From: an uncultured Actinomycetes bacterium
GTDB lineage: Bacteria; Chloroflexota; Dormibacteria; Aeolococcales; Aeolococcaceae
Direction of reading: 5' to 3'
Assembly (NCBI GenBank): GCA_964499205.1
Contig: CAZCJX010000005.1
Span: forward strand, 1,205 to 65,204
Length of the DNA stretch: 64,000 nucleotides
In this document: piece after piece, positions 19,213-53,676 of the stretch
Numbering within the stretch: the stretch's first letter is position 1
How the letters are laid out: each line of letters starts with the position of its first letter
The notes under the pieces: generated by a model
What the model saw: the letters and a program-made list of their open reading frames with translations, nothing else
Told to the model about the DNA's origin: nothing
The model's database searches: none
Program-made: the position numbers and the translations under genes

Positions 19213-19289
19213 GCCCCGTTCGTCTAGTGGTCCAGGACACCGCCCTCTCAAGGCGGAGATCATCGGTTCGAATCCGATACGGGGTACCA
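19213..19289 (+). tRNA. tRNA-Glu (CTC)
   Basis: Acceptor stem GCCCCGT/ACGGGGT, anticodon arm CCGCC-CTCTCAA-GGCGG, T-arm ATCGG-TTCGAAT-CCGAT, encoded CCA. Confidence 0.95.
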
Positions 19290-20807
19290 AATCTCGTTAT
19301 TCAAACCCTCATTCGCGCCATACAGCGCTGCGAAGAAGGGCGTGAACTCGTGGTCGGCGATGCGGCCTCCGCGGACCGAGAGTTGCGCGAAGACGGTCGT
19401 GGCGAACTGCTGGCGGACGCGCGGGTTGCCCTTGCGGTAGCCGAGAGCGCAGTGCGGGACGAAGGCGCGGGCCTTGTTGAGGATGCGGCGCCACTGCTCC
19501 AGCTTCGCGTCCACCACCTTGAGCCGGTCGTTGATCTGCGTGACCTCGCGGTCGATCGTCTGCTGCTCGGACTTGAGCATGGCGATATCCACCGCCCCGG
19601 CGTAGTAGGCGTCGATGATCTTGCGCCGCTTCTGCTCCAGGCGGGCGAGACGCCGAGTCTGGAAGTCGCGCTCCGCGGCGTTGCGGTCCTCGCGACCGAC
19701 CAGCTCCTGCTCCATGCCGTCGATGAGTTCCACGGCCATGTCGGCGGGGAGCTGCACCTTCTCCCACAGGGCCTCCATGTCAGCGTCCAGCTTCTCGGCC
19801 AGGACGAAGGGCTCGCGGCAGTCCGACGGCTTGCGGGCGTCACGGCGACCGAGGCAGAAGAAGTAGAGCTGGCCCTTCGCCACCTGGAGCGACATGCGGC
19901 GCTTGCAGACGCCGCAGAACAGCAGTCCCTTCAAGGGGTGATGGTGACGCCGGTTGCGGACGTCCCGCACCGACCGGGACTCGAGGATCGCCTGGACCTT
20001 GTGGAAGGTCTGCGGATCGATCAGGGGCTCGTGACGCCCTGGGCTCTCGATGCCGTTCCACTCCACGGTGCCGATGTAGAACTTATTCCCGAGAATGTGT
20101 CCGAGGCCGCCGACCGGAATGGGTCTCGGCGGCGTGCCACGGCGACCGCGCGTCATCAGGCCGCGAACTCGCAACTCTTCGGCCAACGCCTCCAGCGTGT
20201 ACTCGCCGGTCGCGTAGAGCTGGAAGGCCTTCTTGATGAGGCCGGCGCGGTCGGCGTCCACCTCGACGTAGGACACGCGGCGCCCCTCGATCCACTCCCG
20301 CCGGTTGACGTAGCCCAGCGGCGCCCGGAACGGCGCACCACCAAGCTCGGCCTTCTTGCGCATTCCCTTCTTGACCTCCGTCGCGAGGTTCGCCGAGTGG
20401 TACTCGTTGACAAGAGCCTGAATCCCTTCGACCAACCGTCCCGAGGCCGTCTCCTCGATCTTCTCGGTGACCGAGATCAGGGCGACGCCCTGCTTGCGGA
20501 GGGTGGCTCGCACCATGAGGTGCAGCGCCGCATCGCGTGAGAAGCGGTCCAGCTTGTGGACGATGACGGCATCGACGTCACCCTGGTCGCGAATGCGGCG
20601 GAGCATCTGGCTGAACTGCGGCCGATCCGCTGACCGCTTGGAGGCGGACTCGCCGCGATCCACGTACTCGTCGATGCAGGACCAGCCCTGCTCCCGAATG
20701 AACTGGAGGCACGCGTCACGCTGCGCCGGGAGCGAATAGCCCTCTTCGGTGTCGTCGCGCTCGGCCTGTTCTTTGGCTGAGACGCGGAGGTAGATCACGC
20801 AGCGCAT
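19260..20807 (-). CDS. Large serine recombinase (integrase)
   Basis: IYLRVS with catalytic Ser, DRGES, HKLDRFSR, APLGY, GRHEPLI, Zn ribbon CGVC...C...C, coiled coil; the stop lies inside the antisense tRNA. Confidence 0.95.
   Translation of the reverse strand: MRCVIYLRVSAKEQAERDDTEEGYSLPAQRDACLQFIREQGWSCIDEYVDRGESASKRSADRPQFSQMLRRIRDQGDVDAVIVHKLDRFSRDAALHLMVRATLRKQGVALISVTEKIEETASGRLVEGIQALVNEYHSANLATEVKKGMRKKAELGGAPFRAPLGYVNRREWIEGRRVSYVEVDADRAGLIKKAFQLYATGEYTLEALAEELRVRGLMTRGRRGTPPRPIPVGGLGHILGNKFYIGTVEWNGIESPGRHEPLIDPQTFHKVQAILESRSVRDVRNRRHHHPLKGLLFCGVCKRRMSLQVAKGQLYFFCLGRRDARKPSDCREPFVLAEKLDADMEALWEKVQLPADMAVELIDGMEQELVGREDRNAAERDFQTRRLARLEQKRRKIIDAYYAGAVDIAMLKSEQQTIDREVTQINDRLKVVDAKLEQWRRILNKARAFVPHCALGYRKGNPRVRQQFATTVFAQLSVRGGRIADHEFTPFFAALYGANEGLNNEIWYPVSDSNR
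19284..19378 (+). repeat. Left copy of the direct repeat (attL junction, within the integrase 3' end)
   Basis: 19284-19369 is identical to 42784-42869 (86 bp) and extends to 95 bp with 2 mismatches. Confidence 0.95.
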
Positions 20808-20959
20808 GGGATGCTCGCTCCACTGCACTGTGTCGGGCTACACTGACTCATGTCTACCCTCCACTAAGGGTTAGACCGTGGGGTCGGCCGTTCGAGCGGC
20901 GCGGCCCCTTTTGTATGTTTGCGACAAATTATACCAAATCATGTTTGCGTCCGGGTGCG

Positions 20960-21142
20960 TCAGCGACGCTGACGACCGCGCCCGCTGCCGAGCAGCGAAC
21001 GCAACTCGTCCTCTTCTGCACACGCCTGAATCGCCACGTCGAGGAACGCACGCGCAAGGCCGCGGATGGCCGCGGCGCGCACGTCGGCAGGAACATGAGC
21101 GACGCGCTCGTCGTAGCTGTAGCGGCGGTGCCCTTGAGTCAT
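20960..21142 (-). CDS. 60-aa hypothetical protein coupled to rep (candidate directionality factor)
   Basis: ATG overlaps the rep stop (ATGA); MTQGHRRYSYDERVAHVPADVRAAAIRGLARAFLDVAIQACAEEDELRSLL... Confidence 0.55.
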   Translation of the reverse strand: MTQGHRRYSYDERVAHVPADVRAAAIRGLARAFLDVAIQACAEEDELRSLLGSGRGRQRR

Positions 21143-22293
21143 TTGGGACTTTCCCCTGTGCGGCCGCGCAAATCCCCTTGTTGGCACCGTCTGACTGTCA
21201 AGGACGGTTGGACACTTCGTCGGAGAGCGCGCTTACGCGCGATGACCTCATCGAGTGACATGCCGCTGCGCACCACATAGCGCTGCGCTACGGGGACTGA
21301 AGCGATCACCGATTCCACATCGGCGAAGGCGTCCGCGGCGGCGAGGGATGTCCCGTATCCCACGAAGCCACGGACCAGGCGCTCGACGCTGGCCTCGTTG
21401 ATGCGCTGGCGGACCAACCCGCTCCGCGGCGATCCCATCTGTGCGGCGCGGATGGCACGCCAGACGCGAAGCTCCGGCCAGCGGCACGGCTGGAGGCGGT
21501 GAATGGGTCGGCGCAGCGACAGCCAGTGCGTTCCGTACTCCCAGAGGTCCTGGCGCCCGGCGAGCAGCTCGTGCACGTGGCCGATGCCGAACTCGTGCAG
21601 GGCACGCCGGCGGTACTGGAATTCCACTCGCCAGACCGGCTGCTCGGGGTCGCGGTCGTTCCAGATCACTTCGGGCCATGTCTCGCCACTGTGCACCAGC
21701 TCCAACGTCTTGTCGTAGATGCGGGCGACGATGTCGCCCTTGCCGAACACGAATCCCGAGAACCGGCGCCCGATGCAGTGCAGGCGGCGCGGCACCTCGG
21801 TCGTGGCCGCGGGCTCCTCGAAGAGGCGGCGCCAGGATGCGCGGCATAGGAAGCGGTGCAGGTCGCGCGGATGCGGCTGCCAGCCTTGGACGTCCGCGTA
21901 GACGTCGGCACGGGACGCTTGGAGCGGGACGGGAGTGGCGAAGAGGTCGCGCTCGACCATCTCGTGCGTCAGAGCGAGGGCGTCCTCTGCACCGACGTGG
22001 TGCAGGAACGACGACCGCACCATGACGTACACTGGAGGGAAGGGCTTGGCGGCGCCGATGCAGACGGTGTAGTTCGGCGCGTCCATCCGAATTGGGTAGC
22101 CGCGCCAGCCGTGCGGCTGCAGGAGGAAGGCGCCGGCGTCCTCGCGGAACTCGATGACCGCGGGCTCCCGGTCCTCGGCCGCGCTGCGCTGGATGCTCTG
22201 CAGGACGGTCACAAGGCCAGGGCGCAGCACCCCGCGTGCCGACACGTAGACGCTGTCGAGGCCTGCCGCGAGAACGCGTACCACCCGCGTCAT
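21139..22293 (-). CDS. Rep_trans-family rolling-circle initiator / MOBT-like relaxase
   Basis: LDSVYVS, SRADVYAD, RIYDKT (likely catalytic Tyr), WRVEFQYRR. Confidence 0.8.
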   Translation of the reverse strand: MTRVVRVLAAGLDSVYVSARGVLRPGLVTVLQSIQRSAAEDREPAVIEFREDAGAFLLQPHGWRGYPIRMDAPNYTVCIGAAKPFPPVYVMVRSSFLHHVGAEDALALTHEMVERDLFATPVPLQASRADVYADVQGWQPHPRDLHRFLCRASWRRLFEEPAATTEVPRRLHCIGRRFSGFVFGKGDIVARIYDKTLELVHSGETWPEVIWNDRDPEQPVWRVEFQYRRRALHEFGIGHVHELLAGRQDLWEYGTHWLSLRRPIHRLQPCRWPELRVWRAIRAAQMGSPRSGLVRQRINEASVERLVRGFVGYGTSLAAADAFADVESVIASVPVAQRYVVRSGMSLDEVIARKRALRRSVQPSLTVRRCQQGDLRGRTGESPK

Positions 22294-23675
22294 CGCGACT
22301 GCTCGGCATGCATGGAGTCGTCTCCATAGTTAAGGGGCGCCCACGCCGCTGCACTTTGGGGGCACGGTGTTACAGGGACCGTGCCCCACCGATCCCGGAG
22401 CAGCTGCTCACTCTCCGCGGCGCTGATGTAGACCGCCTGGAACTCCTCCATGCGCTCGTGCGCCCACACGGCACGGCCCGGTCGAGGCGGCAACATGGCG
22501 GCCCGGTCGGAGTCGAGCAGGATCTGGCTGTTGACCCGCGAGCGCACGCGGAACGCGACCGTCCCGGCCAGGTTGGCCTTGAGCTGCCCCGGCACGGCCT
22601 CGGCGTCGGGTCGCTGCGTGCAGCAGAGCAGGTGGATTCCCGCCGCGCGTCCCAGACGGGCGATCTCGCACAGCCGCGCGCTCGCCCCTTGTTGGTGCTC
22701 GCGGGCGGCTTTGTCTTGCCCGAGGTCCCGCAGCGTGAGCTCGGCCAGCTCGTCCACGGCGACCAGGACGCGCGGCCAGCGGGGCAGCCCGGCGGCCGCC
22801 CTGGCCTCGAGGTCGCGATGCCCGGTCGCTCGCAGGGCCGCCAGCCGGCGATCCAGCTCGGCCCGCACCAGGGTCAGCACCTCGTTGGCCGCCTCGACCG
22901 TGTCGGCGACGGGCGTGAGCGCGTGGGGCAGGCGGCCGAACGGGGTTAGCTCAACGCCACCCTTCAGGTCAATGCAGACCAGCTGCAGCTCGTCCGGTGT
23001 GGCGCTGAGCAGTAGGCCGGTCAGGGCTTGCGCGAGGAAGACGGACTTGCCGCCGCCTGTCATGCCGCCCACCAGCAGGTGGGGCACGGTCGACAGGTCC
23101 GCCCACAGCGGGCCGCGGCGCCCGACCCCGAGACCCACGGCCAGCGGCGAGGCTGGGCGCGGACCGCCGTAGAAGTCGACGAACTCGACGCGGCTCGGGA
23201 TGCGGCGGCGCAGCAGCTCGATGTGGAGCAGGCCGCCGTCCATCCAGCACGACAGCTCGCAGGACAGGCGCTGCTCGATGATGTCCTGACGCTCCTGCAC
23301 GGCGCGCAGGCCCAACCCTGGCGGCAGGAGCCAGCGGGTGAAAAGCGTGTCGCCGCGGCGGCGTGGGCGCCCCTTCTGGACCGGTGCCCGGACGTGGTCG
23401 ACGCCGGTGCGCTGGTGGAGGCCCACGTCGACCATCGCGCGGCGGAGCTGCGCCGGTGTCGACAGGACCATCGTCCAGAGGGTCACCGCGCCGACGGCTG
23501 ATGTGACGACGGCGCAGGCGGCGAGGGAGACGCCGCCAGGGAGCCGGAGCCCCCTGACGACGAGGAGTGCCGCGATCCCCGCAAGCGCGGCTGGGGTGGT
23601 CGCGGCGTGCACGGCGCCGTCGACCAGGGCGTCCACAAGGCTGCGGCGGGGCGGGGCGCCCGCTGACTGAGTCAC
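22290..23675 (-). CDS. FtsK/SpoIIIE-family translocase (TcpA-like coupling protein)
   Basis: N-terminal TMs, PHLLVGGMTGGGKS, IDLKGGVEL, VDELAEL, RLGRAAGIHLLCCTQRP. Confidence 0.9.
   Translation of the reverse strand: MTQSAGAPPRRSLVDALVDGAVHAATTPAALAGIAALLVVRGLRLPGGVSLAACAVVTSAVGAVTLWTMVLSTPAQLRRAMVDVGLHQRTGVDHVRAPVQKGRPRRRGDTLFTRWLLPPGLGLRAVQERQDIIEQRLSCELSCWMDGGLLHIELLRRRIPSRVEFVDFYGGPRPASPLAVGLGVGRRGPLWADLSTVPHLLVGGMTGGGKSVFLAQALTGLLLSATPDELQLVCIDLKGGVELTPFGRLPHALTPVADTVEAANEVLTLVRAELDRRLAALRATGHRDLEARAAAGLPRWPRVLVAVDELAELTLRDLGQDKAAREHQQGASARLCEIARLGRAAGIHLLCCTQRPDAEAVPGQLKANLAGTVAFRVRSRVNSQILLDSDRAAMLPPRPGRAVWAHERMEEFQAVYISAAESEQLLRDRWGTVPVTPCPQSAAAWAPLNYGDDSMHAEQSR
22359..22387 (-). other. 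Candidate nic/dso hairpin
   Basis: Perfect 10-bp stem GGGGCACGGT/ACCGTGCCCC with minus-strand loop CCCTGTAAC, about 65 bp upstream of the rep start. Confidence 0.6.
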
Positions 23676-24061
23676 CGGGCCTTCGCCGCTCCCTTGGCGG
23701 CGGCGGCCGTGTCGTCCGTCGCGGGCGGGGTGAGGTAGACGATCTCCTCGGCGACGACGACGGTGCGGAGCTGACCACCACGGTCGCCTCCGTCCGGGTT
23801 GTAGAACTCGCCGCGGATGCGGCCCTTGACGGCGACGCGCGACCCCTTGTCGTTGAACTTGACGAGGTTGCGCGCCTGCGTGCCCCAGGTCTCGACCCGG
23901 ATCATGTCGGCCTTGGGCCGACCCTCGGTGCGACGACCGCCGACACGCCGAACCGCGATGAGGAACGTCGCCTTGACGCGCGCCTCGCCGCCGGTGCGGG
24001 CGGCGAACTCCTGCAGCTTGATCTCCGAGGCGACCTTACCAACCAGGTCGACGCTGTTCAT
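23672..24061 (-). CDS. ssb: Single-stranded DNA-binding protein
   Basis: MNSVDLVG, VETWG, DKGSRVAVKGRI OB-fold pattern. Confidence 0.85.
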   Translation of the reverse strand: MNSVDLVGKVASEIKLQEFAARTGGEARVKATFLIAVRRVGGRRTEGRPKADMIRVETWGTQARNLVKFNDKGSRVAVKGRIRGEFYNPDGGDRGGQLRTVVVAEEIVYLTPPATDDTAAAAKGAAKAR

Positions 24062-24186
24062 GCGCGCCCCTCGCGCCGTACGCGCAGCACCAACACCCAC
24101 GCCTTGCGGTGTGCTGCACGCTCTGACAGCCAACGGCGTCGCGCGCGTCGACTATCGGCAGCCATGCCCCGATCCGTCATCTTCAT
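24058..24186 (-). CDS. 42-aa basic hypothetical protein
   Basis: AAAGGAGG RBS; its stop overlaps the ssb ATG (ATGA); MKMTDRGMAADSRRARRRWLSERAAHRKAWVLVLRVRREGRA. Confidence 0.55.
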   Translation of the reverse strand: MKMTDRGMAADSRRARRRWLSERAAHRKAWVLVLRVRREGRA

Positions 24187-24378
24187 GCGCTGTCCTCCTT
24201 TGCATCGCGGTGCCGGTATCCGTAGACCCGTGCGGGACAGCGGGTTAGATCACAGGAGGGGCCCCAGCCTTACGGTCTGCCGTGAAGGTCGCTGGCGCTC
24301 GCGGTGCCCTCCGCTAGCCGATTTCGTGGTAACACTGCGACCATGTGGACAGTTGTCGCGAACTGGGGTGGGTAGACG

Positions 24379-25206: not shown

Positions 25207-25224
25207 CCCTCTCCGACGTCCGCG

Positions 25225-27867
25225 CTAGTCCTGAAACCGCAGACCATAGCGCTGGCCACGTCGACGGAAGGCGTCGAGGCCGCCTTCAAGTAGCGCGCAG
25301 ACATGTGCGCGCGTAGTGAGACGGTCAACCGCTCCGGGATCACGCGGCTCACCGTGCCCTGCGTCCGCGTACATGGGTATCACCAATTCAGCGTCACCGA
25401 GAACGGTTAGGTTTGGGCTGTGGGTCGCGAGGATCACCTGACGTCGTTCTTTCGCCGCTTCAAGGTGCCCCACGAGGGCCGTCGCGATGTACTGTGCGTC
25501 CAAGTGGTCCTCCGGCTGGTCAACGACGAGGGGGTCACTACCTTCGGCACACAACAAGAGACTCAACAGGATTGATCGTTGTTGACCCGCTGATAGCTGA
25601 TCGAACTTGCGGTTGACGGTCCCTCCCGCCTCGCGTACCTCGATGCGGAGTAGGTCCTCCAAACGCATCGTCTCCAAGGCGAAAATGCCTTCCCAGTTCC
25701 GGAGATCTGGCACACACTCCGAGATCAACGCCAAGTCAAAGAACTTCTCGCCGCGCCACTCGACCGCCTGTAGGCCTTGTCCACCCTGTAGTATGTGCTC
25801 CGCCATCTGAGCAGGCGTGATAGCACGCGCCACACGCTCAACGCGCGGAGACCGGAACTTGAAGGATCGTCCGAGCCAGCTTTCCCAGGGTTCGCGGATG
25901 CCTGTCTTCTCATACCGCAGATGAATGGTCAGGCCATCGGCCGCGGCATTGGCGGCATCGACCACCTTCTTCAATGCTGCGCGACGCCTCTGGAATCGAG
26001 CATCGCGGTTAGCCCGAAGATCGGAGAGTAGTCCCCGACGGTATGCACGCGCCTGGTTGTGTTCAGCCTGACGCTGCTTCAGGATGTCGATTTCCTTGCG
26101 CAGCGCCTCGATCCCATCTGCCACCGCCTTGACGGCGCCGACCTGTACCTTGAGCCCTTGTGCGGTCAGCTCCTTCTGCTTCGCCTCCAGCTGCTTCTTC
26201 AGTGCCCGGTGATCGTCCTCCCAGCCGGAGAGGGCTTGTCGCACACTTTCAGCGGCACCCGCCACAACCTCCCCCCATGCTTTCCCCGCGACCTGTCGCT
26301 GACTTTCCAGGGCTGCGACTTTCGCTCGCAGCCCGTCATCCCCGCCAAGAAATTTCATGGCTCGAGCGCTGTTGGGATCGACCCCGACCCGCGCCGCCAG
26401 CTTATCCAGGTCGATCGTCGCCCGAGGACGGTCTGAGACAAAGGCCTCCACGGCAGACCGAATACTCTCTAGAAGTGGACCTTCCGAGGCGAGCAGCGCT
26501 GCCCACTGTGCGACAGACTCAAGGCGGCTGCTCTGCGCAGCGGCAAGCTGACTCTCTTGCGCGCGGAGCTTCTTCTCAAGCTCAGGCAACTTCGACAGCC
26601 CTGTACTGCTGCGCACGACTTCGGCGCCGTTGTCCGCCAAAGCCGCCATCAGCTCGTTCTCGCGGCTGTCATATGTCCCCAAATCGACAAATTGCTCCAT
26701 GAACTCAACGATGTTCTGGGGGGACGTGTCGTACCCTCGCGCCAGACGGCCCGGTTCGTCCTGGCCAAAGCCTTGGAGCGTGAGGCTAATAGGTGCGTCG
26801 CTGGTCGCATCGACCGGGTCGCCTCCCCGCCTCCGAACGGCTATGCGTGCCGTGCCAAAGGCATCAATGAACGTCACTCGCGTTCTTGTGGGCATCCGAT
26901 ATGGGTCATCCGGATCGTCGCCGCTTATCGGATCTACGGTTTCTCCGAGGGCAGTCCTGATCGCAAGCAGCGCCGTAGACTTTCCCGAGCCACGCCCGCC
27001 GATCAAGCAATTGAGGTTCTGGGAGAAGTCCATGACGACCCCGTCGAGGAAACCTCCTTCGAACTCAGCCTTCAAGATTCGTGGATACGCCGGGGGTAGG
27101 TTTACCTCCGCCTTGCAGCGTGCTCTTGGCGCATACACCAGTGCGTTTCGCACGGCTGTGAAGTTGAGATCATCAATGCGCAGTCGTGTGAGTGTCCGTG
27201 AGTTCCGATCCAGCCCAACCTTGTCGGGTGAGTGCGCGTCCGACGACATGATGCGCGCAAGCCCTCGTTCCTTGAGCTCTGGCACAGCCTGCCGCGCCAT
27301 CCATGCGCCTTGACGCGCCCCATCGCTATCAGTCGCGGTGATCCAGTCGCGTAAGGACTCGGCGCGAGTGAACTCCAGCGCGGCGAGGTCCGGCGATGCC
27401 AGAAGGCTGGCGAGTGCCTGACTTGTCGTTCCGGCGAGTAGTCCGTCCTGAGCATCCACATGGGCAGCGATTGCCAGACCGCCACGCTTGCCAATCTCAC
27501 TGACGAGATCGAGCATCCCCCGCTGCGATCGAGTGGCCTGGTCACGTGGATCACGAATGAGATGCAACACGCCTTGTGTTGCAAACTCTTCCAGTGCGTC
27601 GACGTGGTCGGGGTCGAAGAGAGCAAGCAGGTGGCCCTCATGGGTCGTCACCTCAATGCCTGGCAGGACGAGAAGATCGACTCCTGCCGCAGCGTCAATG
27701 GCGGCGCGCACCCGGTCAACTCGGTTGTGATCCGTAATACCGAGAATGCGGATGCCTTGTGCGACCGCTGCCTGAATAAAGTCGGCAACCGGATGCTCGC
27801 GGGCGCCAGGATTGTCGGGCACCGTATGAACATGGAGGTCTGCCCGCACAAACTCCGCCCCTGCCAT
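25225..27867 (-). CDS. PHP phosphoesterase fused to SMC/ABC-type ATPase (Ppl/TrlF-like, candidate anti-phage protein)
   Basis: DLHVHT, ITDHN, PGIEV, AH, SSDAHS (PHP); GGRGSGKS, coiled coil, LSAGQ, VVDQPED, ATHSPN. Confidence 0.85.
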   Translation of the reverse strand: MAGAEFVRADLHVHTVPDNPGAREHPVADFIQAAVAQGIRILGITDHNRVDRVRAAIDAAAGVDLLVLPGIEVTTHEGHLLALFDPDHVDALEEFATQGVLHLIRDPRDQATRSQRGMLDLVSEIGKRGGLAIAAHVDAQDGLLAGTTSQALASLLASPDLAALEFTRAESLRDWITATDSDGARQGAWMARQAVPELKERGLARIMSSDAHSPDKVGLDRNSRTLTRLRIDDLNFTAVRNALVYAPRARCKAEVNLPPAYPRILKAEFEGGFLDGVVMDFSQNLNCLIGGRGSGKSTALLAIRTALGETVDPISGDDPDDPYRMPTRTRVTFIDAFGTARIAVRRRGGDPVDATSDAPISLTLQGFGQDEPGRLARGYDTSPQNIVEFMEQFVDLGTYDSRENELMAALADNGAEVVRSSTGLSKLPELEKKLRAQESQLAAAQSSRLESVAQWAALLASEGPLLESIRSAVEAFVSDRPRATIDLDKLAARVGVDPNSARAMKFLGGDDGLRAKVAALESQRQVAGKAWGEVVAGAAESVRQALSGWEDDHRALKKQLEAKQKELTAQGLKVQVGAVKAVADGIEALRKEIDILKQRQAEHNQARAYRRGLLSDLRANRDARFQRRRAALKKVVDAANAAADGLTIHLRYEKTGIREPWESWLGRSFKFRSPRVERVARAITPAQMAEHILQGGQGLQAVEWRGEKFFDLALISECVPDLRNWEGIFALETMRLEDLLRIEVREAGGTVNRKFDQLSAGQQRSILLSLLLCAEGSDPLVVDQPEDHLDAQYIATALVGHLEAAKERRQVILATHSPNLTVLGDAELVIPMYADAGHGEPRDPGAVDRLTTRAHVCALLEGGLDAFRRRGQRYGLRFQD

Positions 27868-33311: not shown

Positions 33312-34997
33312 CTACGAGAGAACGAGCGCGCCGGATGGCGCGGCGACGGTCACGGGGACGTTGAAGTCCGAGAAGGTCACCGTGTCGATGCCGTTGCTGG
33401 CGCGGCGCGGTTCGGCGCCGAAGCGTGTGACCGACATCGTTCCGGTGTCGTCTCGGAGAACGACCAGCTGCTCGCCGTTGGCGCTGTCCGTGCCATCGAA
33501 GTGCACAGCGCCGTCCGGTTGCAGCAGCGTGTCGGCAAGCTGGTGGGGATCGGCCCACATCGACAGGGTGCGGTCGATGATGGTGGCGGTGTCGGAGCGC
33601 GCCTGGTCGCCGGTGAGCTGCAGCCAGCCCGTACCGAGCTGCGCTGCCTGGTCCGGTGTCAGGCCGAAGATGTCCGGCTGGTGCTGGATCGCCGCGCCGC
33701 CCTGCGCGTATAGGGTGCCGTTCACCTTGCGTACCCCGAAGGCGTTGGGACCGGCCAGGGCGAGCGTCGCCGTCCCGGCGTAGTCGCCACTTCGCGCGAA
33801 GTGCACGTCGAACTGCGTGACCTCGTCGCTGAGCGACGTGGTGGTGAAAGCGATGTGGTAGCTCTGCGCGGCGCGGACGGTGGATGCCATGTCAGCCCAC
33901 GCCGCGTCCGCGCTCTTGCCGCTCTCGTCCTGCGCGCCGGGCGTCGGCGTCGCGGTTGGTGCCGTCGTCGGGGCTGCGGCGCTAGACGGTGATGTCGACC
34001 GCGGTGCCGTGGCCGACGCGCCGGTGAGGGGCGTCACCGTCCGATGTGTGACCGCGGCAATGCCACCGGCGATTCCTGCCGTCGCGACCACACCTGCGAC
34101 GCCCAGGGCTGCCAACGGGAACCGACCGCCGCGGCCGATGCGACGCATGCCCCGGTCCCACAGCGACGGCCGCGCGGCCCGCGCCGCGCCGTGCAGCCAG
34201 TGGGGCTTGGCCAGGGCGGCGGGCAGCGGCAGGAACACCAGCCCCGACAGAAGCTCGGCCGGTGCGGTCATCCGGTCGGCGAGTGACCGGCACTCGTCGC
34301 AGGAGCGCATATGGTGCTCGACGCTGCGACGCTGGGACGGGGTGAGTGGGCCGGTCTCTCCCACGGGGACCAGCTCGCGCAACCGCGGGCAGACCGTCTG
34401 CAACCGCGCGACGGTGTCGACGCGGAAGGCGACGCCGAAGGCCTCGCGGGCGCGATGAAGAAGGACGGAGGTGTGCGCCGGTGTCGTGCCGATGACACCC
34501 GCGATCTCCGTCGAGCCCATGCCGTGGCGCAGGTTGAGGTCGAGGATGGTGAACTGCCGCGCGTCGAGGCTGCGAGCGGCAGTCCAGACCCGCGCGGCCA
34601 TGTCCCGCGACACGGCAGTGTCCTCGGGGCCGTGTCCCTGGACGGCGGGCTCCACACCGCGTTCCTCGACGAGCGCATCCAGGGACTCGGTGTACCGGCC
34701 GCCCTTGTGGTGGCGGGCGCAGTTGTAGGCGATGCTGAACAGCCAGGTGCTGACGAGCTCGGTGTCGCGCAGCTTCCCGATGCCGCGCAATGCCCGCAGG
34801 AACGTCGTCTGCATGAGGTCTTCGGCGTCGGTCTCGTCCTGCACCAGGTCGATGAGGAAGTTGTAGACACGGCTGGCATGGCGCTCGTACAGGGCGCCGA
34901 AGGCATCGCCGTCACCGTCGCGAGCACGCGCCGCGAGCTCGGCGTCCGTCGGCCGCTGGTGCGCCGGCGTGGCCGCCGGGATCTGCGTCTCCGTCAT
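33312..34997 (-). CDS. ECF sigma factor fused to zinc-finger anti-sigma, TM and extracellular LolA/LppX-like domain
   Basis: DAEDLMQTTF, WLFSIAYN, sigma4 HTH; C...HMRSCDEC; TM; ST/P linker; AQSYHIAF...TVTFSDFNVPVTVAAP. Confidence 0.85.
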   Translation of the reverse strand: MTETQIPAATPAHQRPTDAELAARARDGDGDAFGALYERHASRVYNFLIDLVQDETDAEDLMQTTFLRALRGIGKLRDTELVSTWLFSIAYNCARHHKGGRYTESLDALVEERGVEPAVQGHGPEDTAVSRDMAARVWTAARSLDARQFTILDLNLRHGMGSTEIAGVIGTTPAHTSVLLHRAREAFGVAFRVDTVARLQTVCPRLRELVPVGETGPLTPSQRRSVEHHMRSCDECRSLADRMTAPAELLSGLVFLPLPAALAKPHWLHGAARAARPSLWDRGMRRIGRGGRFPLAALGVAGVVATAGIAGGIAAVTHRTVTPLTGASATAPRSTSPSSAAAPTTAPTATPTPGAQDESGKSADAAWADMASTVRAAQSYHIAFTTTSLSDEVTQFDVHFARSGDYAGTATLALAGPNAFGVRKVNGTLYAQGGAAIQHQPDIFGLTPDQAAQLGTGWLQLTGDQARSDTATIIDRTLSMWADPHQLADTLLQPDGAVHFDGTDSANGEQLVVLRDDTGTMSVTRFGAEPRRASNGIDTVTFSDFNVPVTVAAPSGALVLS

Positions 34998-35085
34998 GCA
35001 TTCGTCCTCCCGTGGTGCTGGTGATGGAGGGTTGGATCGGAGACGGGCACTGCGATTACGGTCAGCGCCCGCCTCCCCACACCAC

Positions 35086-35647
35086 CTAGGCGCCGAGCAC
35101 CACGGTGCCTCCCGCACGGTCGTACCAGGTCTGCCGCTTGGGGTCGCGGCCGAGCAGCATCACCAGGAAGGCGAGGCTGCCGGCGAGGTAGAGCACGACG
35201 AAGCGGCGCCACGCCTGCCGTCCGCTGATGGGACCGCGGGTGCGGGCATCGGCGACGTAGATGCGCGCCAGCTTCATGCCGAGGGTCGCCTCGAAGAGCA
35301 TCCAGCACCCGATGAAGTACCCGGCCGCGATGACAGAGGTGATGAGCAGCGCGCCCAGCGCGAGGTTGTCGGGGCTGGGTCCATAGGGCGACGCGCCTCC
35401 CTGCAGGAAGGCCGTCAGCCCTCGGTTGACCAGGCCGACCAGCGCGACGTCGACCACGCCGCCGGCGAATCGCCGCCCGATGCTGGCCGCGACCGCGGGG
35501 TCTGCCGCGATCTCCCGCTTGAGCCGGTCCAGCAGCTCGTCCCGCGGGGGGCACCAGCTGGTTAATCTCCGGCCTCGGCTGTCCCGCCCGGGCGGCGCGA
35601 GCCTCCTGCATCCACGCAGGCACGTCCACATGTGTCTGCTCGCTCAT
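35086..35647 (-). pseudogene. RDD family membrane protein with apparent +1 frameshift
   Basis: ASIGRRFAGGVVD, ATLGMKL, RQTWYDRAGGTVV. The RBS-led ATG at 35647 is out of frame, shifting at a C6 run (G6 at 35546-35551 on +). Confidence 0.65.
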
Positions 35648-37753: not shown

Positions 37754-37787
37754 GGCCGCCGCGCCTGTGCTCTGCCGGCCTGCCTTC

Positions 37788-39215: not shown

Positions 39216-39292
39216 CTCATGCTCCCTTCCTTGCCGACGAGGTATGCGCGTCGAACCCGCCGCATGTATCGGACCCTCGCCGACGTCGCCGC

Positions 39293-39322
39293 ATCCTAGC
39301 GGTTGTCCCGGAAAGGTGTCAA
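39293..39322 (-). promoter_or_regulatory. Sigma70-type promoter of the protease gene
   Basis: TTGACA-N18-TAGGAT on the minus strand. Confidence 0.55.
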
Positions 39323-40093
39323 TCGCCGCAGCCGGGTTGCCGCGGGAAGTTGGCTAGCGACCGACGCTGACCGGCAGTCAGCGATTGGCGTGCAGCGTTC
39401 CCATTTCCTCAGCCGCCGTCGCTAGCGAAACCGTGCCGTCGCCGCGCTCACCTGCCTCCTCCCTCCTGACGACCGGGTCTCTCTTCCATCCTGCGTCACC
39501 GGCCGCTGTGGCTGTGGCTCACGCGCAGATGAATCGTCCAACCCGCGCACCCTTCCCATCGACCACGCGTCGCGGGGTGCACCGGCAGGGGCGGCACGCC
39601 CCTGCACCCCACCTGTCGCGGCGTCCGTACCCCTGCGCGCGACCGCTCCCGGACGTCTGTGGAACACCAGCGCCTATTTCGACAAGGAGGAAGTGGGACT
39701 GGGACCAACGCCGCTTGCCAGGGGCCGCGGCGCCGCGGTGTTCCGGGACGTGCGCGCGCGATGGTGGGTGGCCTGGGAGGCCTCGGGACGCACCGAGCCC
39801 GTGCCGGTGGCCTGGCCGTGGCGGTCATGTGATGGCTTGTGGCGGTGGCTCGGCGTTGGTCCCGAGCAGCCCTGGGCCGCTCTCCTACGCGGCGACGGGA
39901 GCTGTGCGTCGGGTGAGCGGGTCTCGCTGGCTGACGATGGCCCCGCTCCGCTAACCGGACTCGCGGACGACCTCGCGCAGCGATCCGAAAGGTCGCGGTG
40001 GGGACGGCGCTGTGAGTGGTGATGGTCGGTGAGGGCTGCTCCCGCCGCACTCAAGGGCAAAGAACACGACGGCGGCGGGAGCAGCGGAGACGA

Positions 40094-41140
40094 TCAGGCG
40101 GCGGGCATGGGCGCCCCTTCCAGCGCCCACGCGGTCTGAGGTGCAGGGGAGGTGCCCTCGGCTTCGCAGGCTGGGCCAACGCAGGCCGGGTCGATGATGC
40201 CGCTTGTGTAGCCGCACCCCTCGACCACGCGGGCCAGGTCGCGCTCCGTCGTGCGATACGTCTCCGCAAGGCGACGCAGGGTTGGCGCCTGGATGGGAGC
40301 GATAGCGAGGACGCCGTGCTTGGTGGCGATGTCGTGGAAGTTGGTCCGCGCCTCGATCCAGCGCCCGTGCGTCAGCACGGGGAACACGAGACGGCGGGAC
40401 ACGGGCAGCCCGTCGCTGAGCCCGAGGTCGACGGCGCCTTGGACGGTCGCCTCAATGTCGCGTGCGGCAGCATCCAACGGGGACGTGCTGCCCGTGGGGT
40501 GGACGAGGAGGACGACGCCATGTTCACGAGAGGCGTCCAGCCCGGCTGCGGCCGAAGCGGCACCCAACTCATCGTCGGACAGGCGCCCGTCGAGCAGTCG
40601 CAGCAGGACACTGGACTTGTCCTTCCCGTCGGGGGTGGGGCTGTGCATCCCCTGGCGCAGTTCCCTCTCGGCCTCGACGGCGAAAGCCTCCGCCTCCGAC
40701 TTCAGGTGGTCGAGCACGCCCAGCTGCGTGCGGTACGGCGCCGAACCGCTCTTCAGATCGCCGCGTGCAGTGGCGATCGCCCCCTCGATGCCCGACGTCA
40801 TGGCGCCGATGACCTCGTGCTCGGCCAGCCCAGCCCGTGCCGCTAGGGCGCCAAGCATGCGGAAGGCGCTGGCCTCCACCGGCCGCATCGACCGCTTGCG
40901 GTTCCACAGGCAACCCAGGATCAGGGCGGTCTGACAAGCGACGTGCAGCGCCGCCGTGGCACGGGCATCGACGTGTGGCGGCGCATCGCGTCCGACCTGC
41001 CGCATGACCGCGTTCACGCAGCGCGTGTCGATGTCCACGGTCAGGTCACGGCGAACCGCATACCGTCGCCGCCTCTCGGCATTCCACCGCGATGCCCAGG
41101 TGTCGGGCGCCGACCGCAGGACGTGAGTAGAGTCCACCAT
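40094..41140 (-). CDS. PucR/CdaR-like protein apparently lacking the C-terminal HTH
   Basis: LLRLLDG...AAAGLD...HGVVLL and LRRLAETYR resemble the CdaR GGDEF-like core; no HTH follows. Confidence 0.5.
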   Translation of the reverse strand: MVDSTHVLRSAPDTWASRWNAERRRRYAVRRDLTVDIDTRCVNAVMRQVGRDAPPHVDARATAALHVACQTALILGCLWNRKRSMRPVEASAFRMLGALAARAGLAEHEVIGAMTSGIEGAIATARGDLKSGSAPYRTQLGVLDHLKSEAEAFAVEAERELRQGMHSPTPDGKDKSSVLLRLLDGRLSDDELGAASAAAGLDASREHGVVLLVHPTGSTSPLDAAARDIEATVQGAVDLGLSDGLPVSRRLVFPVLTHGRWIEARTNFHDIATKHGVLAIAPIQAPTLRRLAETYRTTERDLARVVEGCGYTSGIIDPACVGPACEAEGTSPAPQTAWALEGAPMPAA

Positions 41141-41299
41141 GTCAATCACCTCACTCGTGATTGGCCACGACCCCGGGTGCGTCAACACCGCGGGGTCACT
41201 ACATTTGTGAGTATACACCTTTTGGTGGTGGCTGTGCCGCCTCTAAATCCATTGCTCTCGCAATTGGCAGCTTCCCGATGTTGGGAACAAAAGGGGGAG

Positions 41300-41989
41300 C
41301 TACACAGCCGGTCGGCGCTGGAACCAGGGCACCTCGGGCCCCGGCTCGACCTTGCACCAGTCGCGTTCCCCGATGACGACGTGGTGCAGGAACAGCAAGC
41401 CGACCATGTCACCCGCCGTCGCCATGCGGCTAGTGACGGCGCCGTCCTCCACGCTTGGCCGGGCCTCCCCGCTGGGGTGGTTATGCGCCAATGCAAAGGC
41501 GCGGCCTTTGTGTCGCAGCACGCACCCGAGAACCTCGCTCGGGGAGACGGGGGCCCAGTCAGCTGTTCCCGTGGCCACGATCTCGGTGTGGATCAGGCGG
41601 AGGTTGGCGTTGGCCACCAGAAGCAGCAGGCATTCGCGGTCGCGGTGGCCCAACTCTCGGAACGCCACGCGAGCCGTGGCCTCCGGGGAGGTCAGGGTGA
41701 TGCATTCACGGGGGTCGGACAAAGCACGTCGGGCCAGCGTGAAGGCTGCGACCAATGCCGATGCCTTGGCTGGCCCAACTCCCCGTGTCCACATCAGGTC
41801 TTCGGCACGAGCCTTCGACAGGCCATGGAGTCCGCCCCAGTCGCGCAGCAGCGCGTCGGCGATCTCGTGGGCCCTCTGCAGAGGAAGGCCGGAGCCGAGG
41901 ACCGCGGCGAGGAGGTCGCGCGCCGGCGGCAGGTCGTCGCGCGACGACGCGTCGGGCGGAGCCAGTGTGACTACGCGAGCGTGGCGCAT
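41300..41989 (-). CDS. radC: RadC family JAB/MPN protein with HhH
   Basis: GVGPAKA HhH, RECLLLL, AHNHPSGEARPSVED, LHHVVIG. Confidence 0.9.
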   Translation of the reverse strand: MRHARVVTLAPPDASSRDDLPPARDLLAAVLGSGLPLQRAHEIADALLRDWGGLHGLSKARAEDLMWTRGVGPAKASALVAAFTLARRALSDPRECITLTSPEATARVAFRELGHRDRECLLLLVANANLRLIHTEIVATGTADWAPVSPSEVLGCVLRHKGRAFALAHNHPSGEARPSVEDGAVTSRMATAGDMVGLLFLHHVVIGERDWCKVEPGPEVPWFQRRPAV

Positions 41990-42570
41990 GTCGTATACAG
42001 CTCGTCGGTCATGATCGCGTACCAGGTGGAGCGGGTCACGACTAGGTGCTCGATGAGGGGGACACCAAGGCGCTTGAGCCAAAGGTCGAATCTGCGTGTC
42101 TGGAGGCGGTCGGCCTGGGAGGGGTACGGGTTGCCTGTCGGGTGGTTGTGCGCCAGGATCGTGCCCGTCGCTCCGACGAGGAACGCCGGTCGCAGTACGT
42201 CCCGGGGATCTACGCTCGCCCGGTTCAGCGTTCCGCGTGCCACCTCCGTGTAGCCCATGAACCGGCGGTGCACATCGAAGAAGAAGGCGAGCACCGACTC
42301 ATCGGTCTGCCCGCCGATGATCTGCTGTGCCATCTCAGCCACCAGCGCGACGGCGCGCAGCTGCGAGCTGCACTCCGCGAAGAACCAGCCAGTCCCGAGC
42401 TGGAACCGGTACCGCCTCGCGACGACCTCGATGGTGGGCGCGTCGGCGGGGCTCTTGGTCGGTACGGTCAGCGGCAGCCGGACGGGACGAACCGTGACGC
42501 CAGGCGGCGGCCAGCCGTCGTCGCGCCGCCTGCGTGACTGCGCGAACACAGGGACTCTAGAGTCAGTCAA
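41971..42570 (-). CDS. Second RadC-like JAB domain protein (no HhH)
   Basis: DESV, ARGTLNRASVDPRDV, AHNHPTGNPYPSQAD, IEHLVV; AGGAGG RBS before a TTG start. Confidence 0.85.
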   Translation of the reverse strand: MTDSRVPVFAQSRRRRDDGWPPPGVTVRPVRLPLTVPTKSPADAPTIEVVARRYRFQLGTGWFFAECSSQLRAVALVAEMAQQIIGGQTDESVLAFFFDVHRRFMGYTEVARGTLNRASVDPRDVLRPAFLVGATGTILAHNHPTGNPYPSQADRLQTRRFDLWLKRLGVPLIEHLVVTRSTWYAIMTDELYTTCATLA

Positions 42571-42600
42571 GGCCGTGACCTCCTAATCAGGTTGCGGCTC

Positions 42601-42636
42601 GGCCTCGCGGAGGGACCAACTCCGCGGGGCCTCTTT
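42601..42636. terminator. GC-rich hairpin in the radC leader (terminator-like on +)
   Basis: GGCCTCGCGGAG-GGACCAA-CTCCGCGGGGCC followed by TCTTT. Confidence 0.5.
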
Positions 42637-42661
42637 CGGCTTGTTACCTACACACAATTGT

Positions 42662-42690
42662 AGTGTATTCGCGCCCGGTTGGGGCGTCAA
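42662..42690 (-). promoter_or_regulatory. Near-consensus sigma70 promoter driving the radC pair
   Basis: TTGACG-N17-TACACT on the minus strand. Confidence 0.75.
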
Positions 42691-42696
42691 CCGGAC

Positions 42697-42783
42697 TCAC
42701 AGGGACCCGTCGGCGGCGGCGCTCAGGAGCTTGCCAAGCTTCTCATCGAGGTCGCTGAGGTCTTGAATAAGACCTGATTGGGT
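42697..42783 (-). other. Alternative 28-aa integrase C-terminus (joined on excision)
   Basis: In frame with ...NNEIWY across the GT core: TQSGLIQDLSDLDEKLGKLLSAAADGSL*. Confidence 0.7.
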
Positions 42784-42878
42784 GTACCAAATCTCGTTAT
42801 TCAAACCCTCATTCGCGCCATACAGCGCTGCGAAGAAGGGCGTGAACTCGTGGTCGGCGATGCGGCCTCTGCGGATCG
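42758..42878 (+). repeat. attP-like site plus right copy of the direct repeat (integrase stub)
   Basis: GATTGGGT-GT-ACCAAATC inner arms and TTGAATAA/TTATTCAA outer arms; 42784-42878 matches 19284-19378. Confidence 0.85.
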
Positions 42879-53668: not shown

Positions 53669-53676
53669 TCCACCAC

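Follow-up and report, generated by a model that had tools for sequence, protein, structure and literature searches.

The window, by which is meant the whole stretch of DNA that was analysed (64,000 nucleotides), holds an integrative element that starts at the 3' end of a tRNA-Glu gene, where the gene of a large serine recombinase (LSR) runs into the tRNA from the opposite strand. The features of the locus are as follows.

19213..19289, plus strand: tRNA-Glu(CTC), called by ARAGORN, the sole tRNA in the window; its 3' end is the B half-site
19260..20807, minus strand: large serine recombinase gene (int) in its integrated form, 515 aa, adjoining tRNA-Glu(CTC)
19267..19273, plus strand: T-loop sequence TTCGAAT, with its start 17 nt to the left of the core
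19284..19287: core GTAC common to both junctions, left copy; junction identity begins at 19284
19286..42785: integrative element, 23,500 bp from the repeat spacing
19298..19305, plus strand: P' half-site, motif TATTCAAA (consensus of the family TATTCGAA), within the last int codons and 14 nt to the right of the core
41971..42570, minus strand: RadC-like JAB gene (PF04002, E 8.9e-27), the last element gene on the int strand
42662..42690, minus strand: sigma-70-like promoter site TTGACG-17-TACACT, upstream of radC, a consensus match only
42697..42783, minus strand: distal int tail, TQSGLIQDLSDLDEKLGKLLSAAADGSL plus stop; 28 codons from 42783 to 42700, stop 42697-42699
42762..42769, plus strand: P half-site, motif CTTGAATA (consensus of the family TTCGAATA), with its start 22 nt to the left of the core
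42784..42906, minus strand: integrase gene remnant of ~120 bp; 86 nt are the int 3' end and 39 nt match int 20009-20047 at 90%

The minus-strand open reading frame 19260-20828, with an ATG at 20807, is the integrase, it ends as ...GLNNEIWYPVSDSNR* and is the database protein P0002. Pfam places a catalytic Resolvase domain (PF00239, E 3.2e-31) in it, then Recombinase (PF07508, E 2.4e-10) and the zinc ribbon Zn_ribbon_recom (PF13408, E 2.9e-7), the domains also found in phiC31, Bxb1, A118/LI and SPbeta. The motif YLRVS and four Cys are invariant in an alignment of 44 homologues, and the amount of sequence separating the Cys motifs from the C-terminal part hints at a coiled-coil insertion within the zinc ribbon. 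Among solved structures the nearest are weak matches, these being the catalytic domain of TP901-1 (E 1e-12) and the C-terminal domain of A118 (E 1.6e-4).

The element is probably both integrative and conjugative. It carries an FtsK/SpoIIIE gene above the Pfam cutoff (E 5.8e-35), matches to TraG P-loop, AAA_10 and TrbL that all fall below it, and further Pfam matches to an EccE-like protein, sigma-70 with zf-HC2, trypsin and RadC; the 10 element ORFs scanned with Pfam gave neither a relaxase nor a Rep. Its GC content is 0.60-0.74 compared with 0.70-0.78 in the flanks. The depth of the int contig is 0.67-0.74 of flank depth in four runs of one study, as contigs that cannot show a circle, and this lower depth suggests that part of the sampled population, about 30%, is without the element.

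An integrase frame divided between two junctions

A reading made from the sequence alone had proposed that the int frame crosses the left junction and ends in the antisense tRNA-Glu, which is borne out, with a C-terminus of ...NNEIWY-PVSDSNR* and the stop at 19260-19262. Some 23,500 bp from this end the frame resumes as ...NNEIWY-TQSGLIQDLSDLDEKLGKLLSAAADGSL. The minus-strand translation of 42694-42909 reads ...RGRIADHEFTPFFAALYGANEGLNNEIWYTQSGLIQDLSDLDEKLGKLLSAAADGSL, therefore the 28-codon tail is in the int frame, and the claim that far-end sequence (42783 to 42697) prolongs that frame holds. The GC3-rich codons ascribed to the tail are seen in its coding-like GC by codon position (0.71/0.39/0.71), and it does end just ahead of a putative radC promoter, as the sigma-70-like site (one found, 0.0 expected from shuffles) begins 7 nt past its stop. 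Only the attP configuration joins the tail to int.

The tRNA-Glu genes of two same-genus relatives (G051 and G049) end ...GGGGTAC|G with no encoded CCA, and this native end has only GTAC in common with the P-arm side; in the window the last tRNA-Glu bases, the discriminator and CCA, come from the element. The crossover dinucleotide lies within GTAC and is most likely the GT at 19284-19285. The GT named as a shared core by the sequence-only reading is indeed shared, but it is only the first 2 nt of a perfect direct repeat of 86 nt (19284-19369 = 42784-42869). The three readable half-sites (B, which is the tRNA T-loop, P and P') carry GTTCGAAT-like motifs, and no clear motif was seen on the B' side. 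The T-loop TTCGAAT is a candidate for the zinc-ribbon-domain (DBD2) motif of the B half-site; this distal motif sits at -17 in the T-loop versus -22 in the P arm, 5 nt closer to the core, in agreement with the rule described for canonical LSRs, by which the DBD2 motif of a B-type half-site is closer to the centre by 4-5 bp than that of a P-type one (PMC11722253).

At the right junction the 86-nt repeat is followed by a further 39 nt (42868-42906) that match integrase positions 20009-20047 at 90% identity; between the two pieces about 630 bp of int are absent. A stop lies upstream, and against int the remnant is 76% identical over residues 478-518 with one TGA. The repeat and the second match together mean that an integrase remnant, and not a chance similarity, flanks the junction. 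The tail is physically contiguous with this copy of the int 3' end, and as the copy follows the core, an attP-type sequence (P arm-core-P') is physically present in the chromosome. The right junction had been taken for a plain attR with native flank; instead it is P arm-core-P' beside an integrase scar, therefore the window by itself cannot demonstrate an attP x attB crossover. It is because of this scar that the two junctions share 86 nt, unlike the short-identity sites typical of LSRs. A phmmer search with the 56 residues of remnant plus tail against 1.84 billion representatives matched only the window's own protein, at residues 1-31.

The layout and the tail in homologous elements

Database proteins matching the integrase at E<=1e-20 number 881, and a homologue at E<=1e-40 is present in 12 of 161 order-level genomes, the window's own counted. 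Homologues at 45-60% identity in Actinomycetota and Dormibacterota MAGs have the same layout; a tail-to-tail tRNA is found at 7 of the 11 homologue loci scanned in other genomes, and a decayed copy in the window's own genome also lies tail-to-tail with a tRNA. At 48 of 78 genome loci the gene end adjoins the 3' end of a tRNA and TATTCGAA follows 14 nt beyond the core (49 tRNA junctions, the motif being counted at <=2 mismatches). Among 120 database matches listed, 102 have the C-terminal motif and 84 of these continue directly into antisense T-arm peptide. The target tRNA genes are of at least ten amino-acid types. Judged from these sequences, the layout is common to a large family of soil-bacterial elements, beyond the window.

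P arms were sought by the same core, the element's own motif inverted with at most one mismatch, and at least 5 of 7 identities around the core. Of the 49 element-side flanks (362 kb), 15 contain one, with 2 matches in the outside flanks (323 kb), and these 15 together with the window and G049 give 17 far ends, placed by a geometric rule that was derived from the window and G049; validation against an empty site was tried for one placed far end and was unsuccessful. The 17 elements span 3-33 kb, a 3.2-kb one holding only int and a cupredoxin gene, and in 13 of the 17 junction pairs attL and attR are identical over only 4-8 nt, so that these sites are short with little attP/attB identity, as in canonical LSRs.

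The sequence-only reading had proposed that homologous islands be searched for an in-frame distal tail, and all 17 placed far ends hold one, open for 23-38 codons (23-24 in 10 of them) and with the amphipathic pattern kept. The common pattern is YSN-phi-x-[DEQ]-phi-[RK]-x-[RQK]-phi-x-x-phi. Counting residues on 18 tails, the 17 and that of the database protein P0092, positions +4, +8 and +11 after YSN are hydrophobic in 16, +3 is D/E/Q in 15 and +7 is R/K/Q in 16, although the 17 elements are related and the counts therefore overstate independence. The window tail, in which the P motif is read in another frame to give LIQ and not YSN, was anchored one residue off in these counts and makes up one of the two exceptions among the hydrophobic positions (+4, +8 and +11); a shift by one residue brings it into line with the amphipathic pattern. 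The pattern arose in 0 of 20,000 shuffles, a figure that is inflated because the hydrophobic positions were picked after the alignment was viewed. GC by codon position is 0.76/0.44/0.73 in the tails, 0.61/0.65/0.65 in the next 60 nt and 0.68/0.42/0.84 in int. Some tails are irregular, L063 being without clean periodicity and those of L081, G049 and L156 having 36, 38 and more than 90 codons.

Genes in the attP form also occur naturally. P0092 has a contiguous tail ending ...RVEVRCRYSNLGQLRDRLVQLLDVTPS*, matching the tail predicted for L077 at 13 of 21 positions, and its relative P0078 is 80% identical to it up to the junction and then reads antisense tRNA; a search with the P0092 C-terminus matched 17 proteins, the tail being covered by P0092 alone. 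The metagenome contig L156 encodes a full three-domain LSR contiguous through P-core-P', the contig L141 has 421-nt ends that are 95% alike, and P-core-P' is repeatedly seen in metagenome contigs beside truncated int pieces. The claim that recombination at the int 3' end swaps the C-terminus, a 28-aa tail for one of 7 aa, is thus supported by the frames in the window and by the 17 in-frame far ends.

What the exchanged tail may do

It is very probable that the 23,500-bp element was inserted by the LSR at the 3' end of tRNA-Glu(CTC), using an attachment site inside the end of its own gene. The P' half-site would be the last int codons (...GLNNEIWY), with the P half-site and a further 28 codons at the element's other end. 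In the attP configuration, be it an excised circle or a tandem junction, the gene would end in a 28-aa tail with an amphipathic-helix pattern, LSDLDEKLGKLL, which integration would replace by 7 residues read from antisense tRNA. The right junction would be attP-like because the element adjoins the ~120-bp scar of an earlier family member.

Whether the window element itself came in by attP x attB is close to an even call, as it may instead have entered via RecA at the integrase scar, or be part of a tandem array that a deletion reduced afterwards, and the junction would then mark homology and not the cut of the enzyme. Such an entry is favoured by the 86-nt identity in the assembly (57 nt perfect in independent contigs) together with the second int fragment, by the recurrence of P-core-P' beside truncated int in metagenome contigs, and by G049, the far end of which has a 36-nt P' copy whilst empty tRNA-Gln sites are without any such sequence. 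To our knowledge, canonical LSRs recombine attP only with attB. The published model holds the attL-bound integrase to be locked (PMC11722253). Against such an entry, identity begins exactly at the geometric core common to the 13 canonical junctions. The family-level result, which rests on scar-free junctions, is left untouched by this alternative.

As to function, the sequence-only reading had proposed that the two isoforms could control directionality or stability. A tentative but quite plausible reading, by analogy with Mx8, is that the tailed protein would be the complete, integration-competent enzyme, that integration would strip the helix and so retune or weaken it, as in the change of Mx8 IntP to IntX, and that run-on into the convergent tRNA gene would further damp expression. 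The swap may also be a neutral by-product that regulates nothing, attP lying in the gene end only since P' happens to be coding, the helix being a part of the enzyme, and the tail-less isoform being equally good. In the integrated form the tails are arbitrary, with anything from 2 to more than 60 residues read from antisense tRNA, and the int ORFs of integrated elements are intact (508-840 open codons), therefore the tail-less protein is no obvious dead end. However, the helix pattern is kept across the 18 tails examined, even with the window's DNA motif in another frame, which argues for a function of the tail that is absent by construction after integration, and in the Mx8 precedent specificity is changed (PMC6070905); a neutral swap is on this evidence somewhat doubtful.

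An assembly artefact is highly improbable; it would mean that the MAG assembly collapsed the repeat or joined it wrongly, and that the element lies elsewhere than between these junctions. The sequencing runs were examined as k-mer contigs, and these are interrupted by the 57-86-nt repeat. At 19341 and 19352 the int-linked contigs of four runs read T and A, the window the C and G of the remnant, so the left repeat copy is probably chimeric. Yet k-mer contigs from the four runs, which may be the source reads, support the tRNA-to-P', P'-to-int, P'-to-remnant flank and P-arm-to-P' connections, and the same architecture is found in unrelated assemblies. Least probable of all is that the tail is not translated with the integrase, its open frame being attP-arm DNA conservation or chance, for whilst the P half-site overlaps roughly the first 9 codons of the tail, so that YSN is dictated by TTCGAATA, and stops are scarce in GC-rich DNA (other frames stay open up to 100 codons), the periodic pattern is found at 25-70 nt from the core, outside the ~50-bp attP (size from PMC11722253), substitutions are conservative (L/I/V/M, R/K, D/E/Q), the GC2 dip to 0.44 is confined to the tail, stops cluster at 23-24 codons, and both the gene caller's P0092 and the full LSR ORF of L156 include the tail.

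A stronger proposal, and an unlikely one, is that the swappable helix is a built-in directionality switch without a separate factor and that the family reads the universal tRNA T-loop as its distal motif. In the circle the helix would act in cis on the zinc-ribbon/coiled-coil module, licensing attP x attB synapsis, and its deletion on integration would change which site pairs the enzyme joins. Events of the attP x attL type might then become possible, which would explain the recurrent P-core-P' junctions beside scars, and the T-loop as distal DNA motif would explain retargeting among at least ten tRNA types.

Known systems and the meaning of the finding

Phage Mx8 targets tRNA loci, and in mycobacteriophage BPs the gene concerned is the repressor and the integrase a tyrosine recombinase. 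Both had been invoked as precedents and both are in print: the attP of Mx8 is within the int coding sequence, and integration gives a new 3' end and altered properties (PMC6070905), and that of BPs is inside a coding gene, the C-terminus of whose protein is altered by integration (PMC4557955). The likeness to Mx8 IntP/IntX, an attP inside int and a new C-terminus once integrated, extends to P0092 and P0078. Mx8 differs in having a tyrosine recombinase, with other chemistry and site structure, and in being a single phage, whereas here the exchange is family-wide over many tRNA targets and affects only about 25 residues, a conserved helix; unlike in BPs, it is the recombinase and not the repressor that is re-tailed. 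The SSV1-type precedent is also in print, but the gene there is split and inactivated rather than re-tailed, in 'suicidal' integrases that a review describes as exclusive to archaea (PMC8371274). A suicidal integrase of this kind was rejected for the window, as only the last 28 codons are separated and all Pfam domains stay in the integrated gene; where SSV1-type enzymes are tyrosine recombinases of archaeal viruses, this is a bacterial serine recombinase that keeps its catalytic and DNA-binding domains and loses its tail only.

Canonical LSRs, which have separate directionality factors, mostly target protein genes, unlike the present family, and in the papers searched no attP inside int is described for them. 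Closer in habit are the actinobacterial integrative conjugative elements (AICEs) of Mycobacterium in tRNA-Leu, where a serine recombinase targets a tRNA gene, a choice of target that was called rare (Ghinet et al. 2011, PMC3218068); two members of the present family (L077 and L080) are likewise inserted at tRNA-Leu(taa). The available text of PMC3218068 makes no mention of an attP inside int or of a swapped tail for these AICEs. That a C-terminal peptide can set the direction of a serine integrase is known from an engineered integrase-RDF fusion (PMC5737554), also used in PMC11722253. That fusion is artificial, contains a whole RDF and favours excision, whereas here the appendage is natural and belongs to the form that has to integrate.

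The directionality of LSRs is explained by site geometry, the coiled-coil and a separate cofactor. If the functional reading is true, an enzyme whose own reaction removes its conserved helix would add a state-dependent isoform to this picture. The finding marks out a large group of serine integrases that target tRNA genes and had so far drawn little notice, 881 proteins at E<=1e-20 set against the 'rare' of PMC3218068, and gives a simple rule for locating both ends of these elements in genomes. It further suggests that the C-terminus is wrong in database sequences of these integrases that were predicted from integrated copies (84 of 102 among the matches listed). In genome annotation it accounts for the short scars of integrase genes beside tRNA genes. 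The element supplies the last bases of the tRNA after integration, therefore imprecise loss must keep those bases. If the T-loop reading is also true, the family would offer a portable design for landing sites at tRNA genes.

Two ends for one integrase gene

The integrase gene, int, and a tRNA gene converge at the left end of the element.

19213-19289, plus strand: tRNA-Glu(ctc), the sole tRNA in the window
20828 (GTG; ATG at 20807) to stop at 19260-19262, minus strand: int open reading frame, with Resolvase, Recombinase and zinc-ribbon domains

These three domains identify the int product as a large serine recombinase (LSR). Its C-terminus, ...GLNNEIWY-PVSDSNR, spans the tRNA 3' end with the stop lying within the antisense tRNA, and exactly 23,500 bp rightward the same frame resumes and translates as ...NNEIWY-TQSGLIQDLSDLDEKLGKLLSAAADGSL before a stop. 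This tail has a coding-like GC by codon position of 0.71/0.39/0.71, and a sigma-70-like site begins 7 nt past its stop, upstream of the RadC gene. The sequence-only reading had described an integrase C-terminus that is swapped between the junctions, and as a sequence observation this is borne out, with both frames and both junctions found as it stated. Its shared GT core needs amending: GT is common to both junctions, but the identity is far longer, with an 86-nt perfect direct repeat in the assembly (19284-19369 and 42784-42869) that starts GTACCA. At 42868-42906 follow 39 nt with 90% identity to an internal piece of int, with a stop in frame upstream of it; taken together, the repeat and this piece make the right flank a ~120-bp integrase-gene remnant. 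The stretch 42697-42870 is a physical attP-type junction consisting of P arm, core and P'. The P arm and tail occur in one copy only in the window's own genome, thus the assembly holds no separate circle-junction contig.

On the sequence, attP falls within the last codons of int, the attP form (circle or tandem junction) encodes a conserved amphipathic tail, and in the integrated form this tail is exchanged for arbitrary antisense-tRNA residues. As anatomy the layout is solid; any regulatory role is putative.

Between the junctions the Pfam matches include FtsK/SpoIIIE clearly above cutoff, weak TraG/VirB4-like and TrbL-like matches, a sigma-70/zf-HC2 protein and a trypsin-like protein, and the GC of the element is below that of its flanks. 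The sigma-70/zf-HC2 match lies in a 601-aa ORF (33312-35117, minus strand) that has sigma-70 regions 2 and 4 and the zf-HC2 anti-sigma motif in one frame. The lowest-GC segment of the element (0.61-0.63), at 25225-27867 on the minus strand, encodes an 880-aa PHP and ABC-type ATPase protein that matches the PADLOC model Ppl (E 1.6e-36), so that an anti-phage defence gene is probably among the cargo of the element. Right of the remnant, 42905-55007 holds ordinary genes (FUSC, SPFH/NfeD, DUF2867, MarR, subtilase); the 10 ORFs scanned there include none of a mobile element, and synteny with same-genus genomes returns only at 55007. Three same-genus genomes lack the region 19290-55007 and carry other DNA in its place, different in each, making this a variable hotspot.

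A family of integrases at tRNA genes and their conserved tails

A homologue of the integrase at E<=1e-40 was found in 12 of 161 same-order genomes, including the window's own. Thirteen loci were scanned for tRNAs, these being 11 homologue loci of other genomes, the window's own remnant and L003, a locus on another contig (C14) of the same genome; a tail-to-tail tRNA (Ala, Gln, Gly) stands at 7 of the 11, and L003 has one likewise. L003 is a second, decayed family member at a tRNA-Gly(ccc) (locus 1188-1263), where the P' motif follows the tRNA and a nearby N-terminal integrase fragment, 78% identical over residues 9-45, contains a TGA. At E<=1e-20 the protein database yields 881 relatives out of 8,000 candidates scored. 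A conserved C-terminal PF..LF...FEY motif is present in 102 of the 120 relatives listed, and missing, or the protein truncated, in the other 18. The majority of the motif-bearing proteins (84/102) run directly into an antisense tRNA T-arm peptide (G[FILV]EP...), 17 have other endings, and one, P0092, ends in a helix-like tail unlike these. Among species-representative genomes a scan recovered 78 loci, in MAGs whose titles name Acidimicrobiales, Actinomycetes, Actinomycetota and Candidatus Dormibacterota, and at 48 of these (49 junctions, one spurious) a tRNA 3' end is followed at a fixed distance by TATTCGAA, with <=2 mismatches. The tRNAs targeted are Gly, Ala, Val, Glu, Gln, Leu, Tyr, Met, Arg and Lys.

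The opposite ends of these elements were sought with a geometry taken from the window and from G049, a relative with its element at tRNA-Gln: the start of the P' motif is 14 nt to the right of the core and, at the opposite end, that of the inverted motif TTCGAATA is 22 nt to the left. With each element's own motif inverted (<=1 mismatch), the same core dinucleotide and >=5/7 identities around the core, a candidate far-end site was found in 15 of 49 element-side flanks (362 kb) versus 2 matches in outside flanks (323 kb). Two of the 15 are junctions found earlier in genomes G012 and G160, each being counted once. The elements so delimited are 3.2-15.8 kb in size (n=15), compared with 23.5 kb in the window and 33 kb in G049. 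The smallest (L057, 3,185 bp, at a tRNA-Ala(cgc)) has the integrase and a cupredoxin-type copper protein only, with no recognisable excision helper. For G062, where int has 2 stops, no P arm was found within 40 kb, and for the element of G050 no P' motif was found in 60 kb of sequence, the left limit of which already lay past the tRNA.

The in-frame distal tail that the sequence-only reading looked to homologous islands for is there: when the int frame is carried over by codon phase all 17 placed tails stay open over 23-38 codons before a stop, which falls at 23-24 codons in 10 of them, with the other two frames open for 0 to 100 codons. Beyond the first nine codons the GC by codon position is 0.76/0.44/0.73, compared with 0.61/0.65/0.65 in the next 60 nt and 0.68/0.42/0.84 in int. 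When the 17 tails and that of P0092 are aligned on YSN, the residues encoded by the P motif, they follow the pattern phi-x-[DEQ]-phi-[RK]-x-[RQK]-phi-x-x-phi-phi, with positions +4, +8 and +11 hydrophobic in 16 of 18, position +3 D/E/Q in 15/18 and position +7 R/K/Q in 16/18. A shuffle test gave 0/20,000, for positions chosen post hoc in related sequences. In the window the reading frame through the DNA motif differs and gives LIQ, not YSN; its tail is hence anchored one residue off in this count and makes up one of the two cases that break the pattern at +4, +8 and +11; moved by one residue it matches the family pattern (LSDLDEKLGKLL). That it fits despite the other motif frame argues for selection on the peptide, not on the DNA alone.

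P0092 (27 member sequences) is a database integrase in which the tail is contiguous, ending ...EFEHGTRVEVRCRYSNLGQLRDRLVQLLDVTPS before the stop; P0078 is 80% identical to it up to the junction and then runs into antisense tRNA. The P0092 tail equals that predicted for locus L077 at 13 of 21 positions. In this one subclade (L077:8996-11554, plus strand; P0092; P0078) a Replic_Relax ORF runs in frame into the integrase without a stop (809-852 aa), as a genuine fusion or through a run-on in gene calling. A C-terminal word search with P0092 gave 17 proteins, with the tail covered in P0092 itself only, and phmmer with remnant plus tail gave 4 matches, the sole relevant one being the window's own protein. 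The search of solved structures gave weak matches only, none covering the tail region. A tblastn of the plasmid collection with P0092 gave 277 records, all <60% identity (24-34% among the matches listed) and none a family member, thus no plasmid-borne attP form is found there.

Scanning metagenome contigs for the pattern P motif-N26-28-P' motif gave 30 stretches, and of 13 picked by eye and tested by tblastn 7 have integrase homology. L156 is a full three-domain LSR that is contiguous through P-core-P', with a tail of >90 codons. L141, a 6,001-bp contig, begins and ends with 421-nt stretches that are 95% identical, and its integrase wraps over the ends; it represents a ~5.6-kb element in one of two states, a circle with variants or a tandem copy. 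The frame of the L141 int is broken between residues ~211 and 235. L147 has the C-terminal integrase half only (residues 235-497; by Pfam the zinc ribbon only). In L129, L149, L153 and L158 tails are fused to truncated integrase pieces, resembling the scar in the window, and L137, with no integrase by tblastn, has a shorter scar of that kind whose junction and tail are identical to those of G049. The arrangement of P arm, core and P' with a short integrase piece recurs in eight metagenome contigs (L129, L134, L137, L148, L149, L153, L154, L158), so tail-plus-scar arrangements are common.

Scars beside tRNA genes and the state of the site

No P'-like sequence is present at the empty tRNA-Gln sites of G051 and of the window's own genome. 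This rules out P' as part of the native attB, and the far-end P' copies in the window and in G049 are thus leftovers of earlier elements. Similar scars lie beside tRNA-Glu in G050 and beside tRNA-Gly in the window's own genome. In G050 (locus L025) CCA is encoded after the tRNA-Glu and ~20 nt on is CTATTCGAACTCTCA, a P'-like scar with no integrase beside it. The native tRNA-Glu of two same-genus genomes ends GGGGTAC, followed by G, with CCA not encoded, so that the discriminator-CCA end comes from the element; GTAC alone is common to the native tRNA-Glu site and the P-arm side. As the element supplies the last bases of the tRNA, any imprecise loss has to leave the start of P' in place, which explains the accumulation of scars.

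Canonical LSRs are not known to recombine site pairs other than attP with attB. A scarred site is attL in all but name, and a published model keeps the integrase on attL in a locked dimer (PMC11722253). An element may have entered such a site by RecA-mediated recombination through 36-86 nt of homology, the scarred junction may derive from a tandem array later reduced by deletion, or the integrase of this family may be specifically tolerant of such sites.

As a check on the predicted ends, empty sites were also sought among relatives. For tRNA-Glu, the left flank and tRNA are retained in three same-genus genomes, all of which differ just downstream, leaving the native B' unreadable. For tRNA-Gln, G051 and G000 are empty, yet their right flank is not near the G049 or G050 elements. 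For the far end in G160, homologues of the flank gene occur in 4 of 25 relatives, with a tRNA adjacent at none of the 4 loci scanned.

Four soil-metagenome runs from one study, possibly the source of the assembly, contain the region as k-mer contigs, which end at the repeat and so do not distinguish circle from chromosome. The depth of the left-flank contig in the four runs is 19.8, 22.9, 23.1 and 50.5 and that of the remnant-side contig 19.2, 23.2, 24.2 and 57.6, with the int contig at 13.3, 17.0, 15.6 and 36.4, equivalent to 0.67-0.74 of the flank depth. A 57-nt unitig (19284-19340) has a depth close to the int and remnant-side depths summed. From the deficit of int and the sum at the unitig, ~30% of genomes seem to be without the element, with the tRNA joined to the scar instead. 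A mixture of strains, some with another element at the site, could also give the depth deficit. In all four runs the contig linked to int differs from the window at 19341, with T (a synonymous change), and at 19352, with A (which would replace His by Tyr in ...ADHEFTPFF), whereas the window has the C and G of the remnant; the left repeat copy in the window is therefore probably a chimera of assembly, and the true perfect identity 57 nt.

Precedents, a possible role of the tail and the choice of target

Of known systems the closest is Mx8, in which attP lies within the gene of a tyrosine integrase and the new 3' end of that gene brings changed specificity (PMC6070905). SSV-type integrases have their own gene split by integration (PMC8371274), and in BPs attP lies inside the repressor gene (PMC4557955). 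A 2011 paper described the targeting of tRNA genes by serine recombinases as rare and noted eight Mycobacterium AICEs at tRNA-Leu (PMC3218068). In the literature searched, no serine integrase with attP inside its own gene was found described; the main text of PMC10083194 has 0 occurrences of 'tRNA', and its att-site table might include such cases.

It is possible that the tailed protein is the complete integration enzyme, and that on integration the self-inflicted truncation alters its activity or stability. Run-on into the convergent tRNA gene may in addition lower int expression.

The junctions follow LSR logic. Identity between attL and attR is 4-8 nt in 13 of 17 pairs (e.g. CCAC, CCACCA, GCTCTCG) and longer in L063 and L081 (16-18 nt), G049 (36) and the window (86). 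Identity this short is what LSR sites show, in contrast to the long identity seen with tyrosine integrases at tRNA genes; a long segment of the tyrosine type is ruled out, as canonical junctions share 4-8 nt only. The crossover falls at tRNA positions 71-76, an argument that is partly circular as the sole dinucleotide common to all blocks was a requirement of the scan. Counted leftward from the core, the tRNA T-loop sequence TTCGAAT has its start at 17 nt and the P-arm motif at 22 nt. By the rule published in PMC11722253, attB half-sites have the motif of the second DNA-binding domain closer to the centre than attP half-sites do, by 5 bp (4 bp in SPbeta). A candidate motif for the zinc-ribbon domain is GTTCGAAT, with a putative offset of -17 versus -22; on the B' side no clear motif was seen. 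We infer that the zinc-ribbon domain of this family may read the near-universal T-loop sequence of tRNA genes, which, if true, would account for the spread of the family over many tRNA types.
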